Positions 1 through 63,044 of a DNA stretch of 64,000 nucleotides are shown in pieces. Both the position numbers and the translations under genes were made by a program. This DNA is from Raja brachyura (taxonomy: Eukaryota). The number at the start of each line of letters is the position of its first letter. Position 1 is the first letter of the stretch. The notes under the pieces are model-generated. The model had not been told where the DNA came from, searched no databases, and worked only from the letters and a program-made list of their open reading frames with translations. The DNA is taken from assembly GCA_963514005.1 (NCBI GenBank), contig OY740811.1, positions 28,086,001 through 28,150,000 on the forward strand. The letters run 5' to 3'.

Positions 1-2239
1 AATAAATTAATACTCTAAGTCTAATCTAGCTTGCTGCATGTTGTAGCAGCAGTCAGCGAACGTGCTGCACTTCATGTCACTCCCTTCTGCGTGACTCCCT
101 TCAGCACTCCAGTAGATTGATATAATCTGCACAATCCCTCTATTGTTTAAACTCCTGGTGTTGGTTCTTTTTCAATTTATGGACATATTATTTTAATTTC
201 AGTTTTAACAATGAGTTTCTATTTAAAGGAGAGGGAATGAAATATGACACAGCTGGAACCAGATGCAAATATTATTTAAAAACATAGTACCACTTGGTTG
301 TGATCTTGTCTGTTAGAAAGTTATGGGCTCAAGAGACATGAGCAACATGAGCAATCTCTCCAGAGACATGAGCAATATAATCTGGATTAACATTCCAGTG
401 CTGTTGTAAGGGACATTCTGTTGTCATTTTCTTTCAGATTAGACAATAAATGCAGCTTCTGTCTCGTATCTCAGGTGGATATAAATATTCCCAAGGTATT
501 AATTGGAAGAAGCACAATTGCCCTCATTGCCCTGACCTATAATTATAATTATTTCCCACACAACATAATTTAAAATCTGGTTTGCTCATATCACAATGTG
601 TTTATAGAAGCTTGCCACTTAGTTAGCTGCTCTAATCCTACAGTAGCAACTGGATGTCAAAAACACTTAATTGCTATTAAACACGTTTGAATGTTCTGAG
701 AGCAGAAGTTAATACAAGGCCATTGGTTTAACCGTTTCAAGACATGCTTAAGTATAAACGCATCAAGGTGCAGAGAATAAGACAATGTTCCTGGATTGAA
801 ACAAAATAAATTGGTGAACAATTGTAGGAAACACCATTGAGACCTAACATCAGACTAGAGCTTTGAATTCCTACAGCTCTTTCACTTAAGTACTGATTTA
901 CCAATTAAAGCACTGACCCTCTAATTTGAAAAGAACTGAATAGATTCCTTGGGTACACAAAATGCTGGATAAACTCAGCGGGTGCAGCAGCATCTATGGA
1001 GTGAAGGAGATAGGCAACGTTTCGGGCCAAAACCCTTCTTCAAAGCTCTAGTCTGATGTGTACCCTCGATTTTCCTGCATCTGCAGTTCCTTCTTTAACA
1101 CTGAGTAGATTCCTTGACAGGTAGGTGCTAATCATTGTATTTTTCTGACTTTTGGGAACATTTAAATATGTTTTACTATTTATGTAAATAAATGCTTTTG
1201 TTGTTTATTGTTATTGGTGGATTTATCCTCTGCATATTTTTGGTTATTCCGTCTTGTGTTCTCCATCATAATCTCTGTGCAATTGTTCATGTATTTTTTA
1301 TTTCCGTTCTCCCTCAGCTTCTCTCTATTTCAGTTATCCTCACTCTCTGTATCTCCTACTTTTTCACAATCTCTCCATATCTTATACCCTAGTCCTTTTG
1401 TCCTTTTCTGTGTATTTTCCTAATTTCCATCACTGATTGTTTTCTATTATTTCTTCTCATTATTTGCTCCATTTTCTTTTGTTGGTATTTTTTCTCATTT
1501 TCTGATACTTTTGTTGCAGGTATTTTTGTCTGTCACTATCTCTGTTCCTATCAGTCCTTCCTCTCCTTAAACCAGTTGTACCAGTCCACTCCCTCTCCTG
1601 CCTTTGAGCTGCCCTAAGCAAAACCCAGTAACAGCCTCACACCTTCCTTTTTTTTTAGGACATAATGTTCTGCCTGCTTTTGTTAGGTTTGTCCTTAAAG
1701 GAATCACTAATACTCCAATCAACTATATTGACTTTATATTCAGGAGTGAACTAATGCTGTTATGGAGAAAGGTTTTTGTCAATCTTTGGCTCTCAATTCC
1801 CTTGCAACACAAGTCCAGCCTTTAACCCTTTTGCTGCTGTATTTCATAAGAACTGTGATTTCAGTCATACTTCTATTTCTGTGATGTCTGTAAACCTCTG
1901 TTTTAAATCTGCACATTAAACTAGGTCCCAATTCTGAATGCTTGATTGGTTTTTAAAATCCAAAGCAGCTGCAGAAGCATAACTAAAAAGTTGGAAGTGT
2001 AGTTCAACATGTTTTTAAGTATTGCTCAAAACAGCTGTGAATTCCCATCAAAATTCATTGAAGTTCTGGCAGCCAGAGGGTGGGAAAAGGTAATCAATTT
2101 CTCCACTGCATTGTAACGAAATGTGAATCCTCCTCTGCCCCCACTATTTAAAGCAGTGGCTGGGTTGGGCATTAGTGCTTTAGTACATCTGTACACAAAC
2201 ATTCTTCTGGAATATTAAAGCATGACTGTGGCTATTTTA

Positions 2240-2920
2240 AAAACATAAAACATGGAACCATACAGCACAAGAGCAGGCCCTTTGACCCACAATGTCTTTG
2301 CTGAACGTGATGCTAAGACCATCATTTACCGACCTGCATATAATACATATCCCCTCCATTCCCTGCATATCCAAAGTCCCTTAAATGCCACTATCGTATA
2401 TGCCCCAACCACCAACCTCAGCAGTGCGTGCCAGGCATTCATCGTCCTCTGTGGGGGGAACAAAGCTTGCCCAGCACAATTCCTTTCAATATTACCCTCT
2501 CATCTTAAAACTATGTCCTCTATTATTTAATTTATCCATCCTGGGAAAAAGGTTCTGACTGTCTACCCTATCTACGCCTTTTAGAATTTTATGTATTTCG
2601 ATCAGGTCTCCGCGCAACATCCAGCATTCCAGAGAAAATAATCTGTCTGTCCAACCTCTCCCTGTGCTAATACCCCCTAATCCAGTCATCATTCTGGTAA
2701 ACCTCTGCACTCTTTCCAAAGCCTCCACATCCTTCCTGTAACGGAGCTATCAAAATTGCACGCAATGTTCCAAAAGTAGCCTAACCAAAATCCTATAACA
2801 CGACATCACGACTTCCTGACTTTTATACTCAATGCATGCCATATGCCTTCTTTATGATTCTATCTACTTGTGCTGCCACTTTCTGGGAATTATGGACTTG
2901 GACCTCAAGTTCCCTCTGTA
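2240..2920 (-). mobile_element. CR1-type LINE 3' fragment
   Basis: ALERVQRFTRM...LRGDLIE...RGHSFK; 3' UTR shared with other copies in the window. Confidence 0.85.
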
Positions 2921-5239
2921 TAAAAGTGGGACAACTCATGAAAGAAAGGAAGCAAAAAGAAAGGAGAAAATGTAATAGTTATCAATTGCAAACACATATA
3001 TTTGACAAGCAAAACAAAATTACCATCTTAACCAGTTAATTCCTTGTAGGCCATCAGTAGTTTTACTGTGGATAAGTCCAAGTTAGGCATTTGGCACATG
3101 CAAGACTGACATCAGAGAGAATATGAGGCCAACTGGACTCATTGTTTGTTGATGGTTAAGCTTAATCTCAGCCTGCGGATCATGCTCAACATTTATTGGG
3201 TTATAGAATAAAAATATTATACATTCAGGATTAATTGCCAACCTCATTCAGAGAAGACGCAAACATAAATGGAGTAGGAAAAGGAAATGTTAAAATTACC
3301 TGGTATCCATTGATTTGATGAAAGTTAGATATAAAGCACATTTTTAAAGCGAGGAAAGGGAGCATCTAGCCTGGGCCATGGCTGACTTGGAAATGTTTAA
3401 TGATGAAGTTGCTTTTGCACCAAGAGTGACATCTATCACTCAAATGAAAGCAAGCACAAGCCTAAATTCTGAATTCTATAATCTATTATATACTACTAAC
3501 TCCCACGCTTTAGTTTGTAGCTTCTATATTGTTCTTCTTCGGTCTCTTCAACAATTTTCTTCAGAGCAGACCAATAAAATGTTGTTCCTCTTCAGTTTAT
3601 TTTTTTTTTTAAATCATATATTCATATATTACTCAAAATAGATAACTGACCAATTAGGGGTAATAATGAAACGTGTTTCATTTGCAAACAGCATTGCAAA
3701 AGCCACCGAAAACTATTCACTGGGTATAAAACATGTTTATAAATCCATCAGGTCATATTTGTATGACGTTACACATTACAATTGTATTTTTAGAAATGTA
3801 ACTAATATTCTGTGCACTAATTAATTTGTCGATTTTTATTTATTTTCCATGGCAAACCTTGACAAACAACCATGTTTCTTTCCCTCCTTCTTTAGAATCA
3901 CTGATTCTTCTTAGGATACCCATGACATGTGTCTCTCATACCTTATGCAGGAAGCCAAGCTATGGCTGCTCATGTAAACAAACTTTTTTGTATGGTCTAT
4001 CCATACCTGGATTGTGCTTGAGAAATGCTACATAATGTTTGCCAGGATTGGAAGGTTTGCTAGACAAAGAAAAATAGTATTACTATTGCAAGCTTCTAAT
4101 CAGTGAGAAAAAAGTAGGCGTTGACATGTAGGCTTACGCATACACAACAATTATGCAGATACAGAGATATACACACAAGCACAGATACACAGACCCACAC
4201 ACAATCTGATATGAAATGCATTTATTTTAGTGACAAGCTTGCCCATATACTCTTCACATTCATCCAGGTTGTTAAAGATAGAGAAGGTGGGGAGGATTTA
4301 GAAAATGGTTTGTTGTACAAAATAGCCAGGGAGAGTGAAGACATACATTTATTTACATGCAAATACCTATACAAATACATGTCAATGTACCCGCTCCTGA
4401 AGGCAATACTGCACGCCAAGATTATTTTTTTCTGGAGGAACTCAGGGGGTCAGGCAGCATCGATGGAGTGAAATGGACAGATGGGATTTTGGGTCAGGAC
4501 TCTTCCTCTGACAGTTTAAAAACTTTTGCATTCATTTTTGCAAATTTTAAAGTAACCTTTTATGGCCTATACCTTTTATGCATAGAATTGTTAATATCTA
4601 GAATGTGCTGCCAAAGGAGGTGTGGTGTCAGATACAATTACTACCTTTGCAGGCATTTAAGAAAGACATTTAAGTAGGCAAGGCATAAACGCACACAGTT
4701 CTAGTATAGATGGGCAAAGAGATCAGCATCGACATGGTTGGCCGAAAGGCCCCTTTCTCTGCTATAAACCTCTGTTACAAAACTAGATGAACGGACCAAA
4801 CGTTTAAATGCTCCTCTGGCACGTTGTGTCTTCTTTTGTATCTACATTTCCTTGTTTCTACTTTAAACATTTAAACGTACTGATACATGAGTCTTGTACC
4901 AATCTAAAAGCCACATTGCCAGGCAACATAAAACAGAAGACATGGACACAAGGAACTGCAGATGCTGGTTAATTAAAAAAACTTAAGATCGATGTTGTTT
5001 CAATTTGCCTTTGTACATTGGCTTCTGCAAGGCTTAAGTTATTTTGATGGACATGGTGGACCCCACTAAATTAAATTCACAATAAAACTGGCTTCACTTA
5101 TCTCTTCATTGCTACTTTTTCAGGTTAGTGTTAAATGAGGATAAAGGACGAGTAGTCACAATTTTTAATTTGTGGTTTATATTTTCCCTTTTTGTAGATA
5201 ATTCCTCTTTAAGGCAGAGGTAAGTAAGTGTGCTGACTG

Positions 5240-5479: not shown

Positions 5480-7982
5480 GTAAGTTTCTCGCCATTCACT
5501 GTTCTCCGTTGTCTCAGTTCGCTCGTTCCGAATATATTTGATCGGGAAAGCTCGCTCACAAATTCCATATTAAAATTATTTCTCATTATTTTATCTAAAT
5601 CATTCCGGCTTCTGATTAGTTTGCTGCAAATTCCTTTGTTAAAACTGCAATATTTTCCAAGTAACTCGACACGATATCGTGTTTATTGCGCTGCCAAATG
5701 AACAAAATGCCCTATAAATCATTAGCCTTGAGCTACTCCGATCTGTTTAATATATAACCCGAACTTGCAAGTGTTATACACCATTTCAAAATTGGTTCCA
5801 AAATAATTGTTATTGCAAAAATGTTGCAAGAGAATGGTTAAAATTAACTTTATTAAACTTGGTGTAGTATTAATTACGAGACCTTTTGTAAAAATAAAAA
5901 TATTACTACAATATTACCGACCTTAAGATGTGTGCATCGGATAAAATACGTGTTTCTGAGTTAGAGAGTAGAATGACTTGACCGGTACCTGGAGTTGGAC
6001 AGACACTGGCCTCCAGGTCTGTCTAACTTAATCTATATGCTTCCTCCTCAACTGATTGCTTTCAACCAGCAAATGGTAGAGATAATGTTCAAATCTATCT
6101 GCGATTGCGATAGATTTGTTATTAAAGGTCAGTGAAATTCACAACTCGATTCTTCCTTCTCATGTATGCTGTGGCATTGTAAATCTTTTTCCGCCTCTCC
6201 AGTAGCAAGCCATCCAGGTTTGGAAACAGTCCAGTGAATAAAGATTTAAAGTGACATACTCGCCTCTGTCCGTTTCCTGCAGTTGCCCCCTTTTTAAAGC
6301 AGTTTGTTTACAAGAGGCAAACGATACAGTCTAAACCGTCTGCACTATGCTTTTCTTGGATTTGTTCCAAAATACTCAAATGCATTACATTTTCAGATGG
6401 TAACTAATTTTTCTAATCCCCTGAAACACACACTAGCTTTGAACACATGGCACAAACACATTTTTAAAACTGAAGACAACTATATATGATGCTCCTGGGT
6501 TGCCCCGAAGAAATGCTCCAGTACTAATTGGATGAGAAAATATTTAGATAGCAACTTAAAGCATGTGTAGGAAGGAACTGCGGATGCTGGTTTAAACCGA
6601 AGATAGACACAAAATGCTGGAGTCACTCAGCAGGACAGGCAGAACACTTAAAACATTTGTTCTGGTAGTGGCATGGTGCCTGACTATCCTACAAACATAT
6701 CTGTTTTCCTGCCGGATACAGTTCTCCAGTTGCTTACTGCCCCAATATCCCAAATGAGTCATTGATTTTCATGTGGGAATTTAAACAGGAAAGCTCATCA
6801 GGGGTCCAACTGGTGGAGTGCGCATAGCATCCCGACTTGTGTAACTAACACTTTTTAAAGAAGGTTGCAGGATAGTAATACAATGTAGGTACGTTGACTA
6901 ATTTCTATCACCCTTCTCTAACCTCAAAACTTTTTGGATGTGCAGTTGCAGGAATAATTACCCAGATAACACAAATTCAAATTACTTTACTCAAGGTAGC
7001 TTGAGCATTTTCTTTTAAATTAAGTTTGTTTCAAATTAAAATAATGTAATCATAAATGACAAAATACTGTACTCTGGGGAGAGGGGAATGCAGTATTTAA
7101 TTGACCACAGGGGAGTGTATCATTGAATAGAACACCATAAAAAGGCACTGTTTACCTTGCCATGTTTGTAACAAATCTTCGAGCTATCCAATTAATATCA
7201 CTCTTAATATTTTACTTGAGCACTGCAAATTTTTTCTTTGTAATTAAATTTTTAACCAACATCTTGTTGAAGTGCATTATTATATTTCAATCTTTCTGTT
7301 TAAAAAATAAAAAAATAAAAAACATTTTGAGAAGAAATATCACTTATGGATATGTTCAGCAGTTCTGAGTTTGTGTCATCTGCATTTTGTTTTTCCTATT
7401 GGTATCAATAAACTGCAACACCCCAAATCAGTAATGTAAAACATTATTGGTGTTATTACTCATACTCTGACTGGTCTTGCAACAATAACATAGGAAAGCT
7501 CTGCTCTGCTAACATAATGGAGATTGAAAAGATGTATTCAATACTAAGATGCTGCAAGCTTCTTTCTCGCCCGGGTGTAACATATCACCTGGAATCAGCA
7601 TTTCTTTCTCCTCTGATGGCTCATCATGTGTTTGATTTAATGGATACAAGCACGTTAATCCAACTGAAGTAGCTTCTGGGATGCACAAAGCCTTGCTTCC
7701 ATGGTGCTTTAAAATGAGGGGAGAGGATGTAAAATTTGAGGGTTTTTCTGAACCTTTAATTAATAAAGCTAAACCTATTGCTGGCAGCAGCTCGGCTCCA
7801 GAATTAAGCATTGTGTGTTTTGCCTAGAATTATATTTCTAAACTGAGTAGCTGCTGTCAGCATTAGAGATCTTTTCCTGTTGGGTTGTACTGACTTTGAT
7901 TTTGGTGAAATGATTGCAAATGTGGCATTACTGTCTGGCAGTTTTGGTAATAATATAATGTATAAAGAGAGGATGCGTGTTT

Positions 7983-8375: not shown

Positions 8376-10054
8376 TTTGTTTAGTTAGATTAAAGGTATG
8401 TATATGGATCCTTGGTATCCTCTTTGGATGTGTTTTAAACTTGTGGCAGTTTTCTCCTCTCCCATTTTATCTCCTACAATCTCAGATTGCTGCTTGCTCT
8501 CCTCAGGAACTTTGCCCATGTAAGACATATTTACCATGTATACTTGAGATGCTGTGACAAGCGATTTAATCATTTTAGACCATGTTTTCTTTCACCTGAA
8601 ATTCAATAAGATCACGATCAAACATGGAACAAGAACCCTGACTGAGAATTCTTCCCTTTCCTAGCTCATACTGGTTGTTTGTTACGCTATCTAATATACA
8701 AGAATCGGCTAATTAAATTATAAATTCAAGAGGAACGAGGCAGGTGGCTTAAAGCCAGATTGTAAAAAGCATTTGTCAGGCAGCATCCATGGAGGAGATG
8801 GATATTTGACACTTTGGGTCGGGACTCTTGTTCAGACTGATGGACCCGCTGAGTTCTTCCAGCAGCTTGTTTTTCTTGCCCAAGATTCCAGCATCTGTTG
8901 TCTCTTGTGAATCTAGTTAACCTTGATCTCTGTTTAAAGCATATTGGGTTCAAAAAGGTTTAAATAATTAACGATAGAACCAGGAAAATATATAATTCAT
9001 CTGATTCCGTTTGGTGATAATGCAGTGTTTAACTAGTTTGAGGATGTTCATTTAACCCACTGGGGTCCTCATTGTGTTCCACTGTGCAGAAAGGGAATAG
9101 CATCCTGAGAATCATAATGCTGTGTTTCCGTCCTCTGCATTTTCCTGTAGAGGTTCATCTATATTTCATGGTGAGTTGCCATACTGGCTCAGTGCATTGG
9201 ACTTGGTCTGTTAAGGTAGCGTGACTGGAAGGTCTGGGTAGTCAATTGTGCAGTGTGCTCTCTAAGTTTCTAAATTGTGCACAGCACATGCAGAAACTCT
9301 CTATAAGTTTTCTTGACTAGTGATATTGCTCTTCATCTTTAACTCTATTTACGGATAGCAATCTCTTCCCCCCCCCCCCCCCCCCCCCCCGGCATCCATC
9401 TGAATGTTCCACATGCTCTCTGCATCTTCATTTCTAGCTGGTATAGTTTTCCTGTGTAACTGATGGAGAGGAAGTGAAGTCACTACTTGTGTGTTGATGA
9501 GTAGAGTTACTGTAATCTGCCACTCCCTTTGACATCATTCCCCTTTCTACCAAAAGGTTACACACTGTCCTTTAAAAAGTAGAATTCTAAAATTTGTGCC
9601 TCTGCCTAGAAAGGAGGCCTGGTCCTTTTGTAACTGAGGATCCCAGAGACTTCTATTTAAAGCCGAGGCGATCAAATATCTGGATAATATAGGAAAGCGT
9701 ATTAACGTAGTTATCGAAAGTAGCACCAGATTATTTAAACCATTGAAATATGGGCTTTAGCAATCCACATCAGAAATGAACCTTGTTTCATGTCGTGGAC
9801 ATGTCAGGAAAAAGCAGTGAGGTTGCTTCTTACCTTTTTTCTATTCCCTCTTTTTGTATCAATATTATCATGGTCAGTGCTGATTTGCCCCTTTCCTGAG
9901 ATCCAAATCCATTTGTTTATCGTAATCATAGCTAATTTCTTCTACATTTTCCAGGATCTCAAACGTAATTTAATTTTGGAGAAGGATTTTTCCATACCAG
10001 ATGCTAATTTAAAAGGAGCATGAAGCCTCACTCTAAATATTTTACTGTACCAAT

Positions 10055-10345: not shown

Positions 10346-11859
10346 CTCTAATCTTCTAACTGTAATTCACTTTATCTGTTTTCCATTTTCAGTTCTTCAA
10401 TGACCAATATAAATTTTGGTCAAAGGGTGCCATTGGAGGCACATATTGGGCTACAAAATGAGCAGTATAGTTAAAAGAAAGCCCACCCCTCTGCCCCATG
10501 TGGGTATACAGGGTTGTTGAATTCTTGCCTATGTCCTGTCTCCCTCCCCCCCCCCCCCCCCCCCCCCCAGCAAAATACAAATTAAAAATGTAAATGCTTA
10601 GTCCTTCAAATAAAACAGAAAATTGTGGATTTAAAGCACAGGTTAGTTAGTACCTATTATAAGTAAGGTGTGTTTTGGCTATGTCTGTAGATTTTTTTTT
10701 TATCAGAACCCACTCGAGGAAATTCCAACCATTCGAGAGTTTTTGTTACAAGGCACAGAAACTGGTCTTTTTAACCATTGAGATTGTGCAGGCCATCGTG
10801 CACCCATTTATACTGATCCCATGCATGTCCCTTTTTTAAACCATTTTCTTCTTGCACTTGGGCAATTAACCTCCAAACTGCATGTCTTTGGGATGTATGT
10901 TGGTTTATGAGATCACTTGGTTCTATTGCATTCTGTTTTTGCTATTTAGCAAAAAACAGTCCAGTGTTGTAGTTTTAAATGTGCCTGGTTCTACACGCAG
11001 CATGTCCTTGTGTATTCTTTAAACCAGGGTTGGGCCTCTGGCTTGATGGAAATGATGGTGTGAGGATGTGGTAAACTGTGAGATTACAGATTATGATTAC
11101 CCATTTATCCCAGTTTATCCCATTTAACGTGATTTTAATGCTACACAACATTGTCGAGATACAAGGAACTGCGGACGCTGGTTTGTGAAAAAGACACAAT
11201 GTGCTGGAATAACTCAGTGGGCCAGGCAGCATCAACATCCCCCTCCCTCCCCCCCTCGCATGTATCCACCCATCAACACTTGCCAGGCTTTGTTTTGCCC
11301 CACCTCTTTGCCAGCATTCTTCCTCCCACCCCCCCCCCCCCCCCCCCCACCATAACCACAATCAGTCTCAGGAAGAATCGCGATACATAACGTCTCCTAT
11401 CCATGTTCTCCAGACATGCCGGCAGACCCGCTGAGTTACTCCAGGACTTTGCTTTTGATAGAGTTTGCCCTGAGAATGTGGACATGGGGGCTTTGTTTCC
11501 ACAAGGACTAAGTTATGGTCACTTCTGCCAATACTGTCATTGACAAATACATTCTTTGAGATAAATTGCTGAGGATAAAAGCAAGATTATTCCTTGTGTT
11601 GATTTCATCTGATTACCAGACATGTCTTTTCTCAAATCAGAAAAATCTTAGATTATTGATAAAGTACTATACCTCAGGATTTCCTCAAGAGCTCTACCTT
11701 GATAGTGTGAAGAGAGTACTGCAGCTATTGGTTGTGACTACAGAATAATGATTGGATGAATAATTCAAGACTTGTTTTTTGTCAAGGAATGCAAGACTCT
11801 GTTAACTTGAAGAGAGCACACAGACTTTAAAGGATTGGTGTCTTCTCTAAATTGCCAAC

Positions 11860-12995: not shown

Positions 12996-13567
12996 GTACG
13001 TATCTCACTTGAGTAGGGTAAATGTCTGAGAGTTTCTGTTTTATACATAAATTACTTTTGATAAAGTCTGTGAAGGTTTATTTTTTAATTATTTGAACAT
13101 GGGAGGGTGGGGGGGGGGGGGGGTTGTGGCTGCTATTGACAATGCCAACATTTATTGTACATTTTCAAATGGCCCTGCTCTAAGGAAGTAGTTGGGAGTC
13201 ACTCTGATTGTTGTGAGAAAAATTCACAGTTCAATAACCTGTGGGGGGGCTCAGGAAGACTCCTTATAACGATCATTAGTAGGCAATAAGCACCAGCCAA
13301 TAATGACAATTATTTTTGTTCCTCTGTGTTTGTTTGGTAAACTTTTTCTCCTACTTGTTATGATACTGTGAAACTATTTCACACAAACTGAGACAATCTC
13401 AGGCTCTGAGACCAACTCTTGGTTGGTCTTCAAAAGAATTATTGAGAGGGATGCTGATTAACCAGTGGCACTGGACCTCCGAACTCTGCAAAATGCAGAA
13501 GGATAGAGAGAAAGCTGTGACAGATTTTTAACATTTTAAAATAAAATCTTTTCCTCCCATTAAATAG

Positions 13568-14724
13568 GACAAGACGAGGAGCCATTCGGACTGAATAGAT
13601 ACTGCTGCTTTGGAAGATCATCCTTCCACAAGATACGACCACCACCTCTGAAAATGCAAAACTCTGAGGAATCATTTGTACAGCTGGAAAAGGATCAGGT
13701 TTTGTCTCATTTTAAGAAACTCTCAGTGAACACCACAGTGTTGTCACCACCTCTAACACCAGTGAGGGGAGCAACTGCACTAATTAATTTTGGATGTTCC
13801 AGTGACCGAAGCTCTAAGCCACTCCCCCCACTGCCTTTCCCTTGTGATGAGTTATTCGATGATGTTGACAGTGAGGTTGAGTCCATTACGAGCTCTGAAA
13901 CTGACTTGCTCTTGCATGATAACCGACCATTGAGCTTCAGATATGGTGCTCCGAGCAGAAGGAGTTTCCGTGGATGTGGGCAGACCAACTATGCCTACTC
14001 TGAGAGTATCAGTCACACTAGATTACCAGAGAGTTGCCATGTTATAAAAGATACTTGCCTGGAAAATAAAGAGGTCACTGTACAACCTGTTAAGCCCCAC
14101 CGCAAATTACGGCGTTCGCATTCAGGCCCAGCTGGATCCTACAACAAGCCTACCATACAGAAAAATGCAAGTTGCCTATCAAACTCATTGACAAATACCA
14201 GCGAGGTAAAGCCTGAGATTCCCCCTCGAGTACCCATACCCCCACGGCCAGTGAAACATGACTACCGGAGATGGTCTGCAGAGGTTATGTCAGCCATGCA
14301 CTGTGATGAGGACAAACCACCAAAGGTTCCTCCAAGGGAACCTATGTCCAGAAGCAATTCACGCACCCCAAGTCCCAAAAGTCTCCCGGCCTACCTCAAT
14401 GGGGTGATGCCACCAACACGAAGCTTTGCACCTGATCCCAAATATGTCAGCAACAAAGTCCTCCAACGGCAAGCAAGTGATGGGGCAACGACACGGGTAC
14501 CATGTATTTTGCCAATCATTGAAGATGGGAAGAAGGTGAGCTCGACACACTACTACTTGCTTCCTGAGAGACCTCCATACCTTGACAAATTTGAGAAATA
14601 TTTTGTAGAGGCCCAGGCCTCAGAGGAATCAAATGATTGCACAACAGAGAGCTTCAAGACATGTGCTTTGAGCAAACCAGTAACAATTAAACAGAAATAC
14701 GTTTCCAATGTGGACGCTCCTTAG
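13568..14724 (+). CDS. ERRFI1: ERRFI1 last coding exon (14-3-3 site, proline-rich region, EGFR-binding region)
   Basis: Motifs RRSFRGCGQTNYAY, LRRSHSGPAGS, DYRRWSAEV, KSLPAYLNGVMPPTRSFAPDPKYVS and PCILPIIEDGKKVSSTHYYLLPERP are diagnostic of MIG6; acceptor AG 13566-13567; spliced CDS 1365 nt = 454 aa. Confidence 0.97.
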
Positions 14725-46508: not shown

Positions 46509-46527
46509 TTGTTTATCTCTGTTTCAG

Positions 46528-48045: not shown

Positions 48046-48259
48046 GTACAAGTTTTTCCATGTTTGTGCACAGGGTTAAAAATAGCCCGAAGATCTGATT
48101 TGTTTCTGGACTATACGCCATCTGACCATAGGGTCTGACCACTGGATTCCTGTAACCATTTTCTTTGCCCTCAGGACTCCTCAAAAGTGATCATAAATTC
48201 CACAGTGGTGTGAGTTATTAATCTGTTGCATTAAACAATGACATGACACCCTTGCAATG

Positions 48260-48274
48260 TATATATATATATTA

Positions 48275-48353
<79 letters not shown>

Positions 48354-48355
48354 TA
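48260..48355. repeat. (TA)n(CA)n compound microsatellite
   Basis: Seen directly in the sequence. Confidence 0.95.
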
Positions 48356-49248: not shown

Positions 49249-49452
49249 CTGTTGGAAGAGTTAAAGCGAGTTAACATCAGTATCCATGGCACTGCCATTT
49301 CTTTCAATGCTGAAGGAAATACACAGAGAGGTTATGACGTAATTACCTGGACCCAGCACTCAGGACAGTTCCAACTACCAGTGATTGGTAGTTACAACGA
49401 TGATTTGACAATCAATGCTTCTCAAATTCAGTGGAAGACAGACAATAATGAG
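49249..49452 (+). CDS. TAS1R4: TAS1R gene B exon 4
   Basis: LLEELKRVN...FNAEGNTQRGYDVITW...IQWKTDNNE; 204 nt. Confidence 0.92.
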
Positions 49453-49976
49453 GTAAAGTACAGTGACATGTATACTAAACATTGCCTATCCACCATTCTC
49501 TGTAGTCCATCTCTGCCTTCAGCTTGCTGGACCCTATGCTTTAAAATCACCTCCCTCAATCTCTTTGTTTTTCCTTAGTCATCTGTTCTATTTTTTGCTT
49601 CAATGTCTCTTGTTTGGCTCAATGTCAAAATTTTGGTCTCATGACATTGCTGCAAAATGCATTGGAATGTTTTATCATGGCAAAGTTGCTACATAAAGGC
49701 AAGCTGGAGCTGGAATCCCCCTCATGTAGTGGTCATCATTCCTGTTCTCAGTTTTGCCCCTATAAATCCAACTGACACACATTTATGTATGTCAGACAGT
49801 TGATTCATGCAGTCATTGCTTGGTTTGGCTGAAGAATGTCAAGCGCAACTGAATCTTGCTATCTTCTGCCAAAACTGCCCACTATGTCCCCTAATGGACT
49901 CCGATTCATCCATCTGGAATATTTTTCTCCTCCTCCCCTTCCACACTCACCTCCCACAACAAATAAGACTGAGAAT

Positions 49977-50004
49977 CTGAAGAGGGGTCTCGACCCGAAA
50001 CGTC
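49977..50004 (+). ncRNA. Penelope-type minimal hammerhead ribozyme core
   Basis: CTGAAGA-G-GGGTCTCGACCC-GAAAC-GTC; core and stem II intact, stem I weak. Confidence 0.65.
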
Positions 50005-51195
50005 ACCTACTCCTTTACTCTAGAAATGCTGCCTGGCCCGCTGAGTTACTCCAGCATTTTGTGTCTATCAACAAATGAATTTTGTAGAATTCATTGCTAC
50101 CAAGGTTGAATCACTGAGACATTCCCCCTCTTCTCCCACATCACAAAACCAAATGTCTTCCTTATCTTGGTCCTGAACCTTCATCTTTCTTGTCTCCCCT
50201 CATAACCTTCATCATGTATTGTCTATTGGTACTTATGTGACACATTATGAAATGCTTTATCTAAAAAATGCAAAATTACGCAAGTTATTGTTGTATTAGT
50301 CATATTTGTTTTCCAAGCAATTGGTGCTTTATTGACTTCATTAGGAACCTATCAACTGCAGTATAAACCTTCCTTCCACTGCAATGATCAGGGAGATCAT
50401 CCTACACTGGGGCACAGGTATTTATGACTCCCACAACTTATACCGTTTTATTACTAAAATGACAACCCACAATATTTGAGCCAGGGGTCAATAGTTTTAT
50501 GGTTCAAGCTTTGTTTGCACGTTTTTCTTGGATCCTATTAGATTACTTATGAAATGTTTTGTATCTGAGTTTATCTTTTGCTAATTAAGATTCCAATCAA
50601 TTACTTGTACCTTGGAATTTATATTCCATATGCAAATCACCATACCCCCTGTTAGAATTGAAATTCAGATGATTTATATATAAAGAATTCCCTTGTCTTG
50701 AATGAAGACTGGAATTTAATAACTGTTCAGCGATTCATGCAGTTTAGATATAGACGTTGATCATACTGAATAGCAGGGGGGATATGAGGGGCCGAGTGGC
50801 CTAACCCTACTTTTATGTATCTATTTCTTGTATCAAATGCTGATTACACGCAAACATTCAATAATACATTTTGGAAGGTTTCTCCAGGTCTGTTTGACAC
50901 TGGATTCTGACTACATTCTGATTCCAAGACAAGAACATTGCCACTGGGTCAAGGAGCTGTTCCAGTCACTAGGTTCATTTCAGTAATCCTTTTAACCATT
51001 GTCAGGCTCTTTGACCCAAATCAGTGGAGCAAATCTAAATGATATTTTAGTCAGTACCACTGGGCCATAAACACACTTAGATATTTGCTGTTTGCCTCAC
51101 AGAGAACCCATGAGCCCTGGTACTCCAGGTTGTTTACAAGCATCAATAGAACAGTGAGAGTAGGCAACTAACAAGCATGCTACCTATATCCACAG

Positions 51196-51316
51196 ATTCC
51201 TCAGTCATACTGTTCCAAGAGTTGTGGCCCAGGCCAGAAGAAAATTGTCGTCAGCCTTTACTCCTGCTGTTTTGAATGTGAAGACTGTCCAAGTGGATCC
51301 TTCCAGAACTCAACTG
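51196..51316 (+). CDS. TAS1R4: TAS1R gene B exon 5 (cysteine-rich domain)
   Basis: IPQSYCSKSCGPGQKKIVVSLYSCCFECEDCPSGSFQNST (not in the ORF track); 121 nt; AG/GTGAGA boundaries. Confidence 0.92.
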
Positions 51317-52217
51317 GTGAGACAAAATATTTATCTTCTGACACATGTGAACCACGAAAGATCAAAGGAATTGGAACAGATCATTCTCTGTGAACAGAAA
51401 ATCCATATTTATAGATATTGGGCGCATATGTCAAGAGTAAAAGGAGAGTAAATGGTGATATCTAATTGAGAGATTTCAATATTCTATATATAATAATGGA
51501 TACATAATCAAAGGGTTCAAGTACTGAGCACATGGGAGTGAATTATAGATGAAATATAATTTAGGGCTTTGGGGTCATATTAATGGACTAAGATTTACCA
51601 AGAGTGAGTTACAGTCCTGAATCCAATCAAGGAGTTATAAAGTCATAGAATCATAACAGCACGGAAGGAATAAAGTCCTATCCTGCCCAACCTCCCCCTG
51701 TAGCTCAGGCTCTCAAGTCCTGGCAACATCCTTGTAACTCTTCTCTGCAGTCTTTCCAGCCTAATGACCTCTTCCCTTCGGAAGGATGACCCAAACTGAT
51801 CACAATACTCAAAATGTGGCCTCATCAATGTCTTGTACAATTATAACATAACATCCCAACTTCTATACTCAATACCCTGACTGATGAAGGCCAATATACT
51901 TAAAGCTTCTTGAACACCCTATCTACCTGTGGTGCTACTTTCAAGGAACTATGTACCTACACTCCTAGGTCACTCTGCACTACACCTCCCCAGTGCCATG
52001 TCAGGGGCTGTGCAGGCCCTGCCCTAGTTTGACATCTCAAAATGCAACACCTCGCACTTATCTGCATTAAACTCCATTAACCATTCCTCAGCCCACTCGT
52101 CCAACTGATCAAGATCCTGTTGTGATTTTTGATAATCATCTTCACTCTCTACAGCAGCACCCGATGTTGACCTTATTGTCTGAGTGTCTAAAGTGTCTAA
52201 ATTGACCTAAAGTGTCT

Positions 52218-52357
52218 TCTTCTTCTTGCGTATGGCGTGTACAGCCTAAGGTTGTAGGACAACTTGTTCTATTTGATCTTATTTGATTGTGCACGCCGGG
52301 TTGATTGCATTCGTCGAAACAGGGTGGACCACGTGAAGGTTGCAATCTTCCACCCCG
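52218..52357 (-). mobile_element. Ribozyme-headed short non-autonomous retroposon (SINE-like) with (GAA)n tail
   Basis: TSD CCTAAA(G/C)TGTCT at 52206-52217 and 52358-52369; 3' GAAGAAGAA tail; 5' end coincides with the predicted cleavage site. Confidence 0.8.
52303..52356 (-). ncRNA. Minimal HDV-like (CPEB3-type) self-cleaving ribozyme motif
   Basis: P1 GGGGUGG/CCACCCU, P2 GAUUGCA/UGCAAUC, P3 ACC/GGU, L3 UUCACGU, J4/2 CGAA; nested double-pseudoknot order intact. Confidence 0.85.
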
Positions 52358-52367
52358 CCTAAACTGT

Positions 52368-52395
52368 CTGAAGAAGGTTCTCGACCAGAAACGTC
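52368..52395 (+). ncRNA. Penelope-type hammerhead ribozyme core (slightly degenerate)
   Basis: CTGAAGA-A-GGTTCTCGACC-A-GAAAC-GTC inside a fragment (52178-52499) flanked by the direct repeat TTGACCTTATT. Confidence 0.55.
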
Positions 52396-53563
52396 ACCTA
52401 TTCCTTTTCGCCAGAGATGCTGTCCGACCTGCTGAGCTACTCCAGCATTTTGTGTCTATCTTTGGTTTAAACCAACATCTGCAGTTTCTTCCAACATACT
52501 TGACCTTATTAGTCTTGCAGCTGCTTGCAACCTCCTGGCATATTTGTATTTTGGGGGCCTCTCAACAGTGCACTCTCAACAGCGTGATCATCCCCTTTTT
52601 ATTTCTCAGCTCCACTCAAATAGCTTCACTGGATGAACCATCAGTAATGTGATCTCAGACTACTGTCATGACATTCTCCTTAATCAATTAAGCAGCAACC
52701 ATTCCTCTTTTACCGCCACGTCTATCTCTCCTGTAGCATCTGTACCCTGGAACTTTTAGTTGCCAGTCCTGTCCATCTCTTAGACACGTGTCCATAATGG
52801 CTAAAACGTCCCAGTTGTATGTACCTATCCACGCCCTAGGTTCATCTGCCTCACCCTACAAGCCTCTTACATTAAAATCAATGCAATTCATACCAACAGT
52901 CCTTCCTCACTCCCAGTCATGCTCCTGCCTAGTCTATCCACTGAATGTTCGTTGATCACCTTCCATACTGACATCCAAGCCTCTCATTTGCCTCATTCCT
53001 GCATTGGATCCTGCCCCTTTGCCAATCCAGTTTAAACCCGACCATGTTGCACTAGCTAATCTGTTACAAAATTGGTTCCCCTCCAGTTCAGGATCAGCCC
53101 ATCCCTCTTGCACAGTTCATTGCTTCATATATAAGGCAAGGAATACCTGGCAGAAGTTTGCAGGCTGGAATATAATTTGGGTTCTTTATAAATGGAGTAT
53201 CACAAAACTGGACTGGGTTATAGGTTGGAATAAAATTAATGGTTTGGATTTATTCGTAGAACAATTGATGCACACTAAGATATCGTCACGAATTTTAGGT
53301 GTGACAGAAATTTAGTGTTGCAGAGACTGAGAGCACATTAAGGAAGGAATGGAATCAAGGGCTCAACTGATTAGAATATCAAAAGAGTAAGTTGAGTAAA
53401 TAGGCTGGAGTCTAATTAGGAAGTCTAGCAGTTTAAAAACATATATCTTAGAATGTGTTTTAGTTAGAGTATCATTGGTTGGAGAATGTGAGGACTTTTG
53501 TCATTCCTATACATAAGCATATTTATATGTTTTGAATGAGACTATTCTATTTTGTTGTTCCAG

Positions 53564-54471
53564 ATGGCTTTTCCTGCCATCTATGCCAACCTGATGAGTG
53601 GTCACCACCAAAAAGCCCTATCTGCTTTCAGAGAACTTTGCAATACCTGTCCATGTCCTCACCTCTTGGCGCGACTCAGCTCCTGTTCATGGTACTTGAG
53701 CTCACACTAATCTTGGCAGTCATGATGATCTTTCTAATGAATTCTGGTGCTCCGATCGTGGAGGGTACTGGAGGGAAAATGAACATAGTCATGCTCATCT
53801 CACTAGCTCTCTTATGCTGCAGCTTGTTGCTGTTCCTTGGAGAACCCACCGAACTCATCTGTAAATCACGCCAGCCAGCAACTGCTCTCAGCCTCACCAT
53901 CTGCACATCTATCCTTCTGATCAACTCAGTACACATCTTGCTGACCACTGAGCTCACCAATTTCAGCAAGACGTTCCTCTGTAGATACCAACAATGCGGA
54001 AGATACCTCACCCTTTGTGTCAGTCTCGGAGGGCAAGGAGCCCTTTGTTACTTGTGGCTGAATACGGATGGTGACTTTCTGATGAAGACTGTAGGTGATT
54101 CTGAAGAGGCTCTTTTCGTCTTCTGTAAGAGTGAATCAGAGCTAGTATTCTGGGTGATGTTGGGATACAGTGGCCTACAAGCACTGTCCTGCTTCATGTG
54201 TACCTTTCTGATCCAAACTCCAGCTCACACCTACAATCTGGCTCGGGAGATTAGTGCCTCCATGATCCTCTTTATCACTATCTGGATTTGCTTTGTCCCA
54301 ACATATACAGCTGTGAACAAGAACCATGCACCTGCTGTGCAGACCTCTGCCATGATCCTCAGTTCTTTAGCAATACTTGGTGCCTATTTCATACCCAAAT
54401 GTTTTGTCCTTTGGTTTAAGCCACAATACAACACCACTGATTACTTCCAGGTTTATAATCTAAAAATGTAA
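53564..54471 (+). CDS. TAS1R4: TAS1R gene B exon 6 (7TM domain)
   Basis: CQPDEWSP...CF, CFMCTFL...YNLAREIS, IWICFVP and YFIPKC resemble the TAS1R3 side of the family; total CDS 2538 nt = 845 aa; AATAAA 54898-54903. Confidence 0.93.
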
Positions 54472-55829
54472 ACAAAGGAGTATCAGTGATACGAAAACAC
54501 TCACATTTGCTTTAGAATAATACTGAAGAAGGATCTTGACCCAAGATGTCACCTATCCATGTTCTCCATGACCTACTGAGTTACTCAAGCAGTTGGTGTC
54601 TTTTTGAGAAACCAGCATCTACAGTTCTTTGTTTCTACTCTCTTCTAATAATTAGTCACCGTGCTTTGATATCACGATAGTTCCTGCTGCACTTATATTG
54701 TTTCGATAGATAATAATATTTCTCATTTTGTTCCAAACACTTCAATTTCCCATGAGACTATCTGAATGAGTTATTTCATTTTGTAGAGATATTTTACAAC
54801 CAGAGTAACTGTCCAAAGTGATTACACTCTTTGTTTGAACTAGCTTTAATGTTAGTTCAGCCCAATTGTTCAGTGATTTTACAAATATAAACTTCTCAAT
54901 AAAATGAATTACTCTAAGTAGACATTAAATAATTTATTCTTTAAGTGATGCCCAGTTTATTCATTTATATCTTTAAGCACTGAGTGATGAATTGTTGTTT
55001 TATTTTTTGCGACAGGTGCATGTAATGTTGTGATTCATGTTCCAGTGATTTTCTTATTAGAACATTATGGGCTCTAATGCTGGGGCTCTCAGATATCTTG
55101 CCCATGTATATGCCTGAGCATGCATAATACATTCTGTAAAAGACCTACGATGCTACATCTTGTCTTACGTATTACTGGTTCTACCCAGAGGTTCATATCA
55201 GAGCCTTCAAACAAATTCCAAGATCAAAGCGACTAGGGAATATATTCATTTTAATTATTTACTTATCTAGGCTCTTCCAATGGGCAAAGTTAAAATTGAC
55301 CCCAACATTTTCTGTGACATGAAACAAAACCTGCAGTGCGAATACATTTGAATCACATTGACATTTAGCTGAGATCAAGTGCACTGGTGTCTCATGAGAA
55401 ACCTGCTATTAGTGTTCAGGCATGAGGGTATGTGCTGAGAATCCTGTCACTTCCTGCTGTTCCCTCAGGCTGTGGATTGGTGTTAATTACTGACATCCTG
55501 ATGCTGATCAGGGACCAGTCTAACACCTTTTCCAGCAATAGTACTTGTTCTTTTAAAAGCAGCTGCATGAGGTTACTGCAGGTCTATGGAGGGGAAAAAA
55601 AGGGACAAGCACCACAATCATTCTAATGCAGAGGCTTCATCCACCTTCCTGACAAGTAGGGACCAGACTGTAATGATATCTTACTACATACCTCATGTTC
55701 TGAAGAGGGGGGAGGGGGAGAAGTTGACCTTCCCGGACAGATATGTTGAATGACAATAATGTTCCCAATATTCATATTCATTAGGTTCATGAATATGGGA
55801 ATAATTCGGAAGGTCGGAAGTGTGCTTAC

Positions 55830-58712: not shown

Positions 58713-60505
58713 CGAAACAGAAACAAAATATATCACAAACGTAAGTCTGATCTGGGTATATACTGTCAAACAGAAGGCAGGACAGACTTAACCTAATTCA
58801 AATTGATTTGCAAGGCATGTATGCATTTACAATCCCCTACATCTCACATGCAAACAGGATGTCACACACAAATATAGCAAGAACCATGCTCACAGGTGTG
58901 CATAATAAACTTGACTTCTTTTGCATCACGGTTCATTGAAGAATGGTGGAACAGGCAACAAAATATCTATTCATAGCAATTTGTATGGAGCAAGGCTGCC
59001 TTAATATTCAAGGAATGTTGTTCTTCATTGGAATATAAAGGCATGAAATTCTATTAAAAAAAATCTGAACCTTATTCAGACTCTAGGAGTTCAGTTTTGG
59101 GCCATGACATTAAGGATATGCTAGCCTTGAAGGAGATGCAGCACGTGATCACTACATTTTACCAGAGACAGACATTATGCAGAAAATTTTATTGCGTTCT
59201 CGAGATTGGAAGACAGAGGTGATAGTTAGGGATCAAAATATATCTGAAGTAAAAAGAGGAAGCGCTGGATACACTCAGCAGTCAGGCAGCACCTGTGGTG
59301 TGGAAAACAGAATTAACATTTCAAGTTGAAGACTCTTTGTTGGAATGGGGAAACAGAAAATTAAAGTCAGTTTTAAGTTGTAGAGAATATTGGGGAGCGG
59401 AGGTGTACAGAACAAAAGGGAATATTTTTGATGTGGTTGGCTAATTTTGCTGTGGATAAACTGTACATTAAGTTGGCAAGTTAATGAGGGGAGTTGAAGA
59501 AAGTTATTGAAGGCATTGAAAGAGGAAGCACAAAGGATTGTGAAAGCTAAAACATGCAGTGCTGTGGGGAATACCCAGCAGATCAGACCATGCCAGTGGA
59601 GAGAAATAAAACGGAGCCAATATTATTTATGGAAGACAACACAGAAGGCAGTGGAGGACAATTCTCTGGAGGTTTTCAAGAGAGAGTTAGATAGATCTCT
59701 TAAAGACAGAGGAGTGAAGGGACATGGGAGAAGGCAGGAACTGATTGTGGATGACCAGCCATGATCACAGTGAATGGCGGTGCTGGCTCGAAGGGCCAAA
59801 TGGCCTACTCCTGCACCTATTGCCTATAAATGGCAATATACGTTTGGATGTGCGACCCTGGGCCACATGGGTACAATTCATCATTGGATTCAACAGGATT
59901 CGCGGGATTTGCACTTGCAGGTCTAAAATTTGCCACGTGTTGTGTCGCATGGTCAGAAGATTATGAATTAAACTTCCTTATTCTCTAGTTATTCTGAAAA
60001 AAACATTTAACCAATGCTTTGAAGGTTGAACCAGAATAGCTTCAGAAGTATATCAATAATCATCTGTCTCGTCTGGAGTGTTTGGTCAACACATGAATTA
60101 CATCTGAGAAGAAATACCTATTAGTTTTGATTTACATTCATATGCCCTTTTTCCTTCATTCCTTTACCTTCATTATCCTATGCATTTCGATCTTGAATCT
60201 ATCGCAACCAAAGCCTCACAACTCCGTGTCAAGCAGTTTCTCTTGATCATGTTCCAACTGCCTCAATGTAGCATTGTATTCCTAGATTATCAACTACTGA
60301 AAGCTGTAACTTTGAATAAAAAGTGTCCATATTTAAGTCTTATTTCATATCTAACTACAGTGTAACTACACATCCTAATTACAGTGTGGAGCCAAAATGC
60401 CTCATACTTATCCAGTCACATATGGTTGCATAATCTATAGCCACCATGAGCCCTGCCCATACTAGTCTTCCGTGAAATAAAGCCTTCTTTATACAAACTG
60501 GATAC

Positions 60506-61845
60506 CTGGAGAACATGGATAGATGATGTTTTGGTTTGGGATCCTTCTTCAGACTGATTGTGTTGTGGGGGGAGAAAGCTGAAAGAGAGGATCGGCAGGA
60601 CAATGTTTGGTAAGTGATAGGTGTCACAGGTGAGGGTTTTTTTCATGGGCAGATAGTTGGTCAAAGGGTGGAGATGAAAAGACAGGGATAAGGATATAAG
60701 AAGTGCAAATTGAAAAGCCAGAGGAAGGAATATAGGTGAGAGGTGAGGGCAAGGGGAATACTATCTTGTTTCATCTGAGGTGAGGGCGAGCGAGAGGAGA
60801 ACTACAGGTCACAGAAGAGATACAAGGATAGAAATCTCCTGGTCCTCCCTTTCACTCCATTAGCCTCTGCATCCAACAGATCATTCTGACATTTCCACCA
60901 CGTTCAGCATGATCTTATCAGAAGTCGCATCTTCCCATCCTCACCCCTTTCTGCATTCTGCAGAGATTGCTCCCTCCACCATGCCTTGATTCACCCATCC
61001 TTTCCCACCCAAACCACCCCCTCCCCTGGTACTTTCCCCCGCAACCACAGAGGATGTAACACATGTCCCTATACTTCCTACCTCACATCCATCCATGGAC
61101 CCCAGCAGTCCTTCCGGGGGAAGGCAGTGCACATGCACCTCCTCCAAACTGATCTATTGCATTCGATGTTCCTGATGTGGCCTCCTTTACATCAGGGAAA
61201 CCAAATGTAGACTCGATGACCGTTTCACTGAAAGGTTGCACTCGGTCCTCCAAAGCCTACTGGGTCTCCCGGTTGCTAGCCATTTTAATTCCGCTTCCCA
61301 TTCCCATACTGACCATTCTGTCCTGGGCCTCCCCCATTGCCATAGTGAGACCATACGCAAACTGGACGAACAGCATATTCTGCTTGCGTAGCTTATAACC
61401 TTATGGTATGAACATTGAATTCTCCAATTTATGGTAACTAACCCTTCTCTGCCCCCTCTTTTCCTCTCCGCCCTTTTTTCCCTCTTCCCTCTTTTCCCTG
61501 TGCCCCATCTGGATGTCACCCATTTCTCTCTTCCCCATCCCCTTCCACCTATTTACCTTCATCTGGCTACAGAATTTGCACTTACATAGCATCACACTTC
61601 TTCTATCCTTATCTCACACCTTTTGTCTTTTCATCACTGGCCTTTGTCCAACCATCTGCTTATCAAGCATCCCTCTTCACCTGTAACCACCTATCACTTA
61701 CCAGGGTTTGTCCCGCCCCTCCTCCTTCCAGCTTTTTCACTTCCATTACATTCAGTCTGAAGAAGGGTCCCGACTCCTGACCCGAAACATCACCTATCCA
61801 TCTTCTCCAAAAATGCTGCCTGACCCGCTGAGTTACTCCAGCCAC
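60506..61845 (+). mobile_element. Penelope-like element 3' part (GIY-YIG endonuclease relic) with inverted terminal copy
   Basis: PGTFPRNHRGCNTCPY, then LIYCIRCS*CGLLYIRETKCRLDDRF...VASHFNS...H; hammerhead-like terminus 61757-61791; 60506-60760 is an inverted copy of about 61530-61810. Confidence 0.85.
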
Positions 61846-61853
61846 TCTTTAAC

Positions 61854-62035
61854 ATGCTTCTCGTTTATTCCTGTCTGAATTCCCTTCCCATTGAAAATGT
61901 CCACTGTGGCAGTGCAATGCCTGGACCCCACAAAAAGCCGCTCCAACAGTTTCAGGCTAATGGGAATTACATCCTCTTTCCACTTTATGCCAGTAATGCA
62001 AACAGAATAAATTCAGACTCTGACAAGTGTAAAAG
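61854..62035 (+). pseudogene. TAS1R3: TAS1R3-like pseudogene exon 1
   Basis: QQFQANGNYIL---FPLY...DKCK matches family exon 1 but lacks the GG(L) tripeptide; phase-2 donor GTAAGT at 62036. Confidence 0.75.
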
Positions 62036-63044
62036 GTAAGTTTGTTCTGTCTTGCAGTTTGAACACCCCAGGCAGCTTGTTGTAGGACTGACTCATACAG
62101 ACTTGTGCAGTGCACATTTCCAACCTTGTTCCTTGAAGAGTTTATTGAGTAACTACACACCTTTCAACATTAAAAAAGTGTTCATAGATTATTCTTAGAA
62201 GCGGTATCAGTAACATTTGTGCAAGGTCCCACATAAAAGCGGTACCAGGTCAGATGATTGAAATCTTCACACAGGGGATAGGATTTAAGAGTGCTTAAAG
62301 AGCAGTAGGAAGTAGAGAGGCGGTTGAGGGAATTCCAGAGCTCAGAGCCATGACTGGAATTCATAGCTGTCCATGGTAGGGTGAAGGAAATCAAGAATGT
62401 TCAAGATGCTGGAACTGGAGCAGAAATATCTGGCATGGTTAAATCTGGAGAAGATTAAGGACAAGGACAGTGATTTAATTTTTAAATCATTGCAATAATG
62501 GGCTGGAAGCAAGTGCACTAGTGAACACTGGTGTGATGGGAATGTGTTACTTGATTTGAGATGGGATACAAATTTTGGATAATCACTTCATTTACAGGAA
62601 TGGAAGGGACTACAAAGAGCCTTGGCGTCTTAGGTTTCAGGAGGTAAAAATCAGCCAGTGATCGTAGCTGACATGTGAAAGTGGAAACGATTAGGCAGCA
62701 CTGAAAAATCTAGACCTGGTATAATAGTTTCAGGTGGAATAATAAAAGCGCAGCAGAGTGAGTGAACTGGAATAAAATTCTGCTGATAAATAGTGATGAC
62801 TGTTATCCACAATGCCTGCAAGATAATGTTTATCAATTCCTGATCCCGGCACCACTTGTCATTGAAGGACATAAAGTGCTGGAGTAACTATATGGATTAG
62901 GCAGCATCTCCAGAGAACATGGACAGGTGTCATTTCAGGTCGGACGCTACTTCAGACTGAGTTGTTGAGTTACTCCAGAACTTTGTACCCTTTTGTGTAA
63001 ACCAACATCTGCAATTCCTTGTTTCTACCTCTTGACCCAATTCC

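Follow-up and report, generated by a model that had tools for sequence, protein, structure and literature searches.

Hammerhead-bearing end modules of a Penelope-like retrotransposon form a very abundant short repeat in the skate Raja brachyura, with copy ends that suggest an uncut RNA template

Hammerhead ribozymes in the pseudo-long-terminal-repeats (pseudo-LTRs) of Penelope-like elements (PLEs) are a known kind of motif (Cervera 2014, Frangieh 2024). The minimal hammerheads listed by Cervera and De la Pena share a U-rich lead-in, CUGANGAH, a G10.1-C11.1 pair, GAAAN, a palindromic 15.2-16.2 and UH; they lie in both pseudo-LTRs, occur mostly as single dispersed motifs with opposite-strand pairs also reported, and number about 9,000 in Xenopus, with no cartilaginous fish among the listed motifs (PMC4209133). 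Published minimal hammerheads cleave poorly even as dimers (PMC4209133, PMC6765202). Work in vitro on PAc, the Poseidon element of Anolis carolinensis, has shown that reverse transcription (RT) starts at two internal sites matching the genomic tail and that cutting and extension take place on both target strands. The reaction requires RNA downstream of the start and mainly uses uncut RNA, and the hammerhead cleaves only with the protein (PMC11167929). In the Penelope element of D. virilis, an internal promoter lies within the pseudo-LTR (PMC2377424). Among endonuclease-bearing (EN+) PLEs, a CX2-5CxxC linker between the reverse transcriptase and the endonuclease marks Neptune or Nematis (PMC8557442), and the non-LTR retrozymes are small hammerhead repeats related to PLE pseudo-LTRs (PMC7229834, Li et al. 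2026 preprint). Here we describe a repeat of this kind in a 64,000-nt stretch of the 2.70-Gb genome of the skate Raja brachyura (OY740811.1:28,086,001-28,150,000; hereafter the window) and show that it represents the hammerhead and tail, or pseudo-LTR, of an autonomous EN+ PLE with recent activity. A search of the literature, with Repbase and Dfam outside its scope, returned no paper on this family or on a clustering of 5′ ends before the hammerhead.

A first-pass annotation had reported more than a dozen copies of a minimal hammerhead motif in the window, and all 14 of its coordinates fall within copies of a single repeat (on the minus strand, they refer to the end of the motif with the cleavage site, for example C17 at 42700 with C3 at 42727). 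Using nhmmer, we found 27 fragments of the repeat, covering 2,486 bp, in the window and none in 20 shuffled windows; the core region is covered by 19 of the 27. Self-BLAST depth reaches 19 for this repeat versus at most 6 for every other repeat of the window, confirming that it is the most abundant short one there. The core boxes, extra purine after A9, stem II and loopless palindromic stem III are also as annotated, the motif reading CUGAAGA, an extra A, stem II GGGU-CUCG-ACCC, then GAAAC-GUC. A strict descriptor passes three window sites, and the CG palindrome is kept only at 49977 (+) and 42727 (−), where helix I is reduced to 1 bp because the upstream flank is non-element sequence. An Rfam scan of these data gave no hammerhead family at E ≤ 1, its matches being chance hits to hairpins or microsatellites.

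The parent element was reached by walking upstream from a young copy to near-full elements. The full unit consists of a hammerhead, a 5′ untranslated region (UTR) that forms the tail, an ATG 135 nt past the cut site, one open reading frame (ORF), a pyrimidine-rich 3′ UTR, and again a hammerhead and tail. At three loci (L229, L231 and L232), two same-strand hammerheads about 3.96 kb apart flank the ORF, and at a further locus (L233) the frame is open over 1191 aa in the order reverse transcriptase, Cys linker and GIY-YIG, with DKG, YIDD, a CNRKRCYTC linker at residue 1058, YIGET and a GIY-YIG domain. The ORF has 1226 homologues at E ≤ 1e-50, the best named ones being from shark (70% identity) and turtle, and two other copies of the element match Pfam RVT_1 and GIY-YIG weakly. 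In the window, 60824-61431 (+) holds a broken 3′ part of this frame, with the Cys-rich linker and GIY-YIG interrupted by frameshifts and stops; Pfam found nothing in these broken pieces, and tblastn with the intact ORF matched them to the C-terminus of the protein (46-63% identity, E 1e-38), so that one copy does close a GIY-YIG-encoding element, as had been annotated. Its pseudo-LTR follows at 61432-61843 (+), comprising a pyrimidine-rich 3′ UTR, a decayed hammerhead (from 61757, with a 7-nt insertion and the palindrome lost) and a tail. Beside it, at 60505-60745 (−) (upper bound approximate), stands an inverted, 5′-truncated partner with 3′ UTR, hammerhead (C3 at 60552) and partial tail, which is the usual PLE layout. 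The element structure, the open ORF, the C-terminal match in the window and the inverted truncated partner together identify the short repeat as the pseudo-LTR of this element, and the annotated Penelope derivation is supported, as is the assignment to the minimal type I hammerheads described by Cervera and De la Pena.

The element is an EN+ PLE, and by its linker motif it would be of the Neptune or Nematis kind (Neptune-type). It shares with these the order reverse transcriptase, CX2-5CxxC linker and C-terminal GIY-YIG, as well as partial tandems, an inverted 5′-truncated partner and a tail often at one end only (PMC8557442), the tail measuring 30-40 bp; it differs in the long Pro/Ser-rich stretch in the N-terminal half of the 1191-aa ORF (L233:984-4556). 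A second open frame of 231 aa in the ORF region is common to many copies. The 3′ UTR is about 80-440 nt long depending on the subfamily (L051, L022, L052, L040); in nearly all of them it closes with CAGT ahead of the core, and several have CCCTGAC directly before that. Derivatives with internal deletions are arranged head to tail in tandems of 311 and 328 bp (L227:800-1700 and L228:760-1480), every unit containing a hammerhead and the beginning of the ORF; they resemble retrozymes and provide natural dimer substrates.

The decay of the core can be followed position by position in 77 ungapped copies, drawn from the window and from a sample of 38 genomic stretches of 10 kb at round coordinates. 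The boxes CUGANGA and GAAA, the UH triplet, the extra nucleotide after A9 and G10.1-C11.1 are the majority base throughout, and non-CpG core positions are kept in 65-76 copies. Three CpGs are prone to decay, two of which coincide with G12 and the palindrome: G12 is G in 46/77 and position 16.2 is kept in 47/77, while helix III, the loopless palindrome ACGU, retains CG in 38/77, most remaining copies being CpG-decayed. Decay at CpG sites, which the first-pass annotation had reported for most copies, is thus real, but it is not the sole damage: 16 cores are intact, 18 are broken solely by CpG-type changes and 43 are otherwise broken. Five subfamilies with at least six copies each have identical majority core boxes, except G12 (A by CpG decay in the oldest), whereas differences among them at loop 2, H17 and position 1.1 leave the pairing intact (U-A to U-G at 2.1-1.1 and 10.4-11.4). 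Some older, related low-copy families have U at N7 and other helix I letters (e.g., L098:5990 (+) and L074:8664 (−)), and some carry C instead of A9.

A consensus without a pairable stem I, joined by a failure to cleave even as a dimer, had been named beforehand as refuting the motif. The outcome for stem I is marginal: two base pairs can form, U-A or U-G followed by G-C, and the third position is an A-C mismatch; the three positions are paired in 64, 48 and 14 of the 77 copies, and a few older copies have helix I of the GUC/GAC or GUU/AAC type, a hint of compensatory change. The skate motif differs here from the published minimal hammerheads, whose 2-bp examples are all G-C, as opposed to the U-A or U-G closing pair (PMC4209133). 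Predicted folds disfavour the active form in monomer and dimer alike: the predicted pairing probability of helix I in the monomer is 0.0001, and, for the dimer, folds with a partial double hammerhead are less stable by 7-10 kcal/mol than the best predicted one. The folding z-scores of six copies, −1.56 to +0.19, indicate no unusual stability, and a tail stem (AGAUGCUG pairing with CAGCAUCU) appears in four of the six predicted folds. The ribozyme is probably weak and would need a partner or the element's protein.

Genome-wide, we counted 54,989 exact occurrences of the 28-letter core pattern (reversed control, 0), well above the Xenopus figure, and the young subfamily alone accounts for 48,590 exact tail anchors and 26,834 exact 39-mers spanning the whole core and cut site. 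The 38 sampled stretches yielded 163 hits, or 4.1% of their DNA, 112 of them with the core region, with no hits in shuffled or reversed controls of this search; the descriptor passed 30 sites in the sample versus 0.4 in shuffles, 13 of them with the palindrome and a 2-bp helix I. Extrapolation gives about 1.2 million fragments (about 4% of the DNA) and about 90,000 motifs with palindrome and 2-bp helix I, totals that are rough because the hits range from 0 to 11 per 10 kb. The very high copy number that had been proposed is therefore borne out. Retrozymes also reach very high numbers, with 126,247 canonical motifs in the 28-Gb axolotl genome, a density well below that of the skate motif, but they are arranged in tandem, have canonical hammerheads and give rise to circular RNAs (PMC7229834), whereas the bulk of skate copies are single or inverted and the motif is minimal.

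The ends of young copies are sharp. We compiled 101 entries, pair partners and duplicates included, at the first 100 places in the list of tail anchors (contig C1, 0.17-3.93 Mb); because this anchor is situated 3′ of the cut site, selection by it leaves the 5′ ends unbiased. At the 3′ side, 72 copies end at about +56 to +69, 25 at about +96 to +104 and four elsewhere, which places two fixed end points in the tail, near +66 and +101 nt relative to the cut site. At the 5′ side, 37 copies enter the 3′ UTR (26 of them reaching −145 or further); the other 64 are short, and 49 of these begin at −7 to 0 relative to C3 (mode −3). The stop rate per nucleotide is 0.071 at −7 to 0 versus 0.004 at +13 to +28, and only one short copy, an inversion, begins at the cut site. 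Target-site duplications (TSDs) of 9-17 bp, a few doubtful, bracket 41 of the 64 short copies, and the junctions show microhomology of 1-4 nt or short fillers. An untemplated cap G was considered at the 5′ junctions and rejected, a G preceding 5 of the 12 ends at −3, not clearly above chance. Among 20 near-full loci, 12 include the 5′ UTR, and three of these begin at −4, −3 and +2 (one as a separate upstream piece). Exact matches that run past the second 3′ point into the 5′ UTR number 616, against the 48,590 tail anchors.

Inverted pairs, noted as frequent in the first-pass annotation, are enriched. Head-to-head pairs number five in the window and 39 in the 380 kb of sample, where 7.8 are expected, whereas same-strand neighbours within 300 nt are not enriched (11 versus 15.8 expected; none in the window). 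Apart from the rare exceptions L227 and L228, the head-to-tail tandem arrangement of retrozymes is thus not the rule here. The same counts bear on the suggestion that the copies cleave as dimers, which does not apply to inverted pairs: one arm is antisense, so that they cannot form dimers in cis. A raw table of 30 pairs has 19 that use the first and the second 3′ point, five that use the first twice, none that uses the second twice and six others. When rows without a bracketing TSD are omitted, 14 distinct events are left, of which 13 combine the first and second points and the remaining one ends slightly beyond the second; single copies use the first point in 49 of 65 cases. At one polymorphic site the two arms agree in 26 of 27 rows (the rows are not independent of each other), and several perfect inverted pairs are centred on the near-palindrome CAG-T-CTG.

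These boundaries can be explained by a reaction analogous to that of PAc, and we give the following account as a whole a probability of about 60%: the repeat is the pseudo-LTR of an autonomous PLE, and its short copies are made from uncut RNA by internal RT starts, on transcripts whose 5′ end lies just before the hammerhead. By analogy with PAc, the element's protein would nick both target strands, and reverse transcription would begin internally at the two tail sites. Most transcripts would begin just 5′ of the hammerhead, probably by transcription start at the CAGT before the core, which we take to be initiator-like. A linear RNA with this 5′ end would yield only a copy of 95-130 nt, because the sole RT start that has RNA downstream of it would lie near the transcript's 5′ end. 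Priming on both strands, one per tail site, would produce inverted pairs. The template of the short copies would be uncut at its hammerhead; had a linear RNA been cleaved by its 5′ hammerhead, copies would be expected to start at +28, and such copies are almost absent. For the longer copies, the template may be tandem read-through RNA or an RNA circle, cut and rejoined, of the kind that Cervera and De la Pena proposed (PMC4209133). The short copies would then be dead by-products, the dispersed copies being mostly dead and decaying at CpGs. The skate element resembles PAc in having two 3′ end points about 35 nt apart that form the tail, in a hammerhead within the pseudo-LTR and in insertion from uncut RNA, which we infer for the skate; it differs in that hammerhead and end points lie in the 5′ UTR, those of PAc lying inside the ORF, and in its Cys linker, and the main-text portions of the PAc paper do not report 5′ clustering before the hammerhead (PMC11167929).

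Several observations weigh against this account. The RNA data are assembled contigs, in which neither 5′ ends nor cleavage products can be seen: one library recorded as RNA contains a 484-nt contig that spans the cut site, but it carries no information on ends, and the library may include DNA. In D. virilis, the start is well upstream of the hammerhead, with an intron running from +46 nt (PMC2377424) to helix I (PMC4209133). The more than one third of young copies that enter the 3′ UTR (37/101), together with 11,573 exact matches across the 3′ UTR junction, call for a further type of template. The set of 101 young copies is drawn from the first 4 Mb of a single contig, and pair partners and duplicates are counted in it. 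As to the parent element, Pfam matches on the ORF fall short of curated cut-offs, and its suggested clade placement draws on a single feature, the linker motif. Two further readings were tried and rejected. A spliced template, with the pyrimidine run and CAG as acceptor and AAG/GTATG at the start codon as donor, was discarded because the joined junction has no exact match in the genome; a Pol III B-box in stem II, judged by what we take to be its consensus, is a poor match in the wrong position.

A different origin of the short unit, as a self-propagating SINE-like (short interspersed element-like) non-autonomous family that carries a promoter of its own and moves by means of the PLE protein, would account for the sharp 5′ and 3′ ends and for the excess of short over coding copies (a recognisable 3′ UTR lies upstream in only 10-12 of 110 core-bearing random hits); the 311-bp and 328-bp deleted tandems show that internally deleted forms exist, and putatively non-autonomous PLEs are known from Chlamydomonas (PMC8557442). 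The first-pass annotation had likewise taken the repeat for a separate non-autonomous family. The comparison of short and long copies goes the other way: in one young subfamily, 47 short and 34 long copies have the same majority sequence and the same divergence (1.2 versus 1.3% in the tail, 2.1 versus 2.1% in the core), and so do not form separate lineages. Every main tail type is also found behind the GIY-YIG frame (66 loci), and the 35 non-inverted short copies show no shared 5′ junction flank, five BLAST pairs among their flanks being offset pieces of other repeats or of the element. Furthermore, short copies stop at the RT start points and would, by analogy with PAc, be without the downstream RNA that this reaction requires. 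We consider such a family unlikely.

The 5′ ends might instead cluster because reverse transcription or repair stops there, at a block of bound protein or by annealing at the near-palindrome CAG-T-CTG during resolution. The perfect inverted pairs centred on this sequence and the microhomology or fillers at junctions fit such stops, but non-inverted short copies also begin at −7 to 0 (28/35), predicted folds contain no stable hairpin directly upstream of the core, and a folded hammerhead should stop the enzyme on its 3′ side, where stops are rare; on balance we think this quite improbable. It is more doubtful still that the motif is a vestige, a 2-bp helix I that does not cleave and is retained only as promoter or protein-binding sequence. 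Such a reading draws on the sparse pairing of helix I, the unfavourable monomer and dimer predictions and the near absence of copies that begin at the cut site, and eight of nine Xenopus dimer elements were reported uncleaved (bioRxiv 10.64898/2026.07.22.740005). Set against it are the constancy of the core boxes over five subfamilies, G12 excepted, in contrast to the variable loop 2, H17 and position 1.1, where pairing is preserved, and the older copies with GUC/GAC-type or GUU/AAC-type helix I; moreover, PLE hammerheads with a 2-bp helix I are published (PMC4209133), and that of PAc cleaves only with its protein (PMC11167929). We therefore regard a vestigial motif as very unlikely and retain, as the more probable reading, priming on uncut RNA from transcripts that begin before the hammerhead.

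The remaining copies in the window range from intact cores to fragments. Intact minimal cores (C3-C17) with the CG palindrome and a 1-bp helix I are found at 49977-50004 (+), in the copy 49975-50081, and at 42700-42727 (−), in the copy 42609-42728. The element at 52365-52496 (+) has a full hammerhead and tail with core boxes and palindrome intact and the 10.1-11.1 pair broken, and that at 36592-36724 (+) a full hammerhead and tail with G12 and 16.2 decayed and a short inverted tail piece upstream. Three short copies have TSDs: 19702-19797 (+) (15-bp duplications at 19688 and 19796, the event spanning 19688-19810; G12 decayed), 25082-25185 (+) (10-bp duplication at 25064 and 25178, span 25064-25187; core decayed) and 941-1042 (−), which with a short inverted tail piece makes up an event at 935-1115 flanked by 16-bp duplications (935-950 and 1100-1115, one mismatch), one arm stopping at the first 3′ point and the other at the second. 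Inverted pairs lie at 38299-38475 (38299-38383 (−), without CUGA, and 38379-38475 (+)), at 40855-41084 (neighbours 40855-40946 (−) and 40970-41084 (+), both decayed or truncated) and at 62859-63024 (62859-62958 (−) and 62957-63024 (+)); two older pairs absent from the first-pass annotation lie at 8775-8905 (8775-8838 (−) and 8837-8905 (+)) and 11160-11455 (11160-11233 (−) and 11364-11455 (+)). Decayed copies occur at 31228-31333 (+) and 54522-54634 (+), an old decayed one at 4432-4513 (−), and old or tail-only pieces, all on the minus strand, at 6565-6642, 24709-24777, 29349-29433, 31715-31831 and 59259-59303.

The window contains a Mig-6/ERRFI1 exon at 13564-14724 (+), beside two head-to-head genes for class C G-protein-coupled receptors at 46502-54471 (+) and 30188-40510 (−); for the plus-strand gene, the nearest solved structure to the exon examined is T1R3, and the decayed copy at 54522-54634 lies about 50 nt past its stop codon. 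The sense copies at 49977 and 52368 (+) stand 2.4 kb apart between exons of this T1R-like gene, with the core boxes and the ACGU palindrome preserved in each. They could conceivably form a double hammerhead in the pre-mRNA, but this is unlikely, because helix I is 1 bp in one copy and the 10.1-11.1 pair is broken in the other. The second most common repeat of the window consists of long interspersed element (LINE) fragments with reverse transcriptase and a shared 3′ end, at 17115-19061 (−), 20245-21503 (+), 22682-23333 (+) and 33113-35254, presumably of the CR1/L2 type. A 184-aa frame at 46046-46600 (−) with a weak zf-RVT match is likely the end of another LINE.

That a hammerhead sits in a Penelope pseudo-LTR is no surprise, such motifs having been known since 2014. 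The value of this family lies in scale and precision: about 4% of a 2.7-Gb genome is one end module, with a young subfamily at 1-2% divergence, and hammerhead scans of cartilaginous fishes should be expected to return very many inert hits. The sharp copy boundaries make several PLE questions testable, namely where the RNA starts, whether the template is cut or uncut, and why the tail of inverted pairs is one-sided. More tentatively, and at clearly less than even odds, the micro-copies may record the PLE reaction itself, with a start at the 5′ edge of the hammerhead, a protein dimer that primes both strands on the same uncut RNA, and a hammerhead that makes circles for long copies; more boldly, the ACGU palindrome may serve to dimerise RNAs rather than mainly to cleave them. 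If so, one mechanism would account for the tail, for the inverted pairs and for why tiny copies are in such excess, and the ribozyme would gain a role left open by the work on PAc, turning a minority of transcripts into circles that template the long copies.

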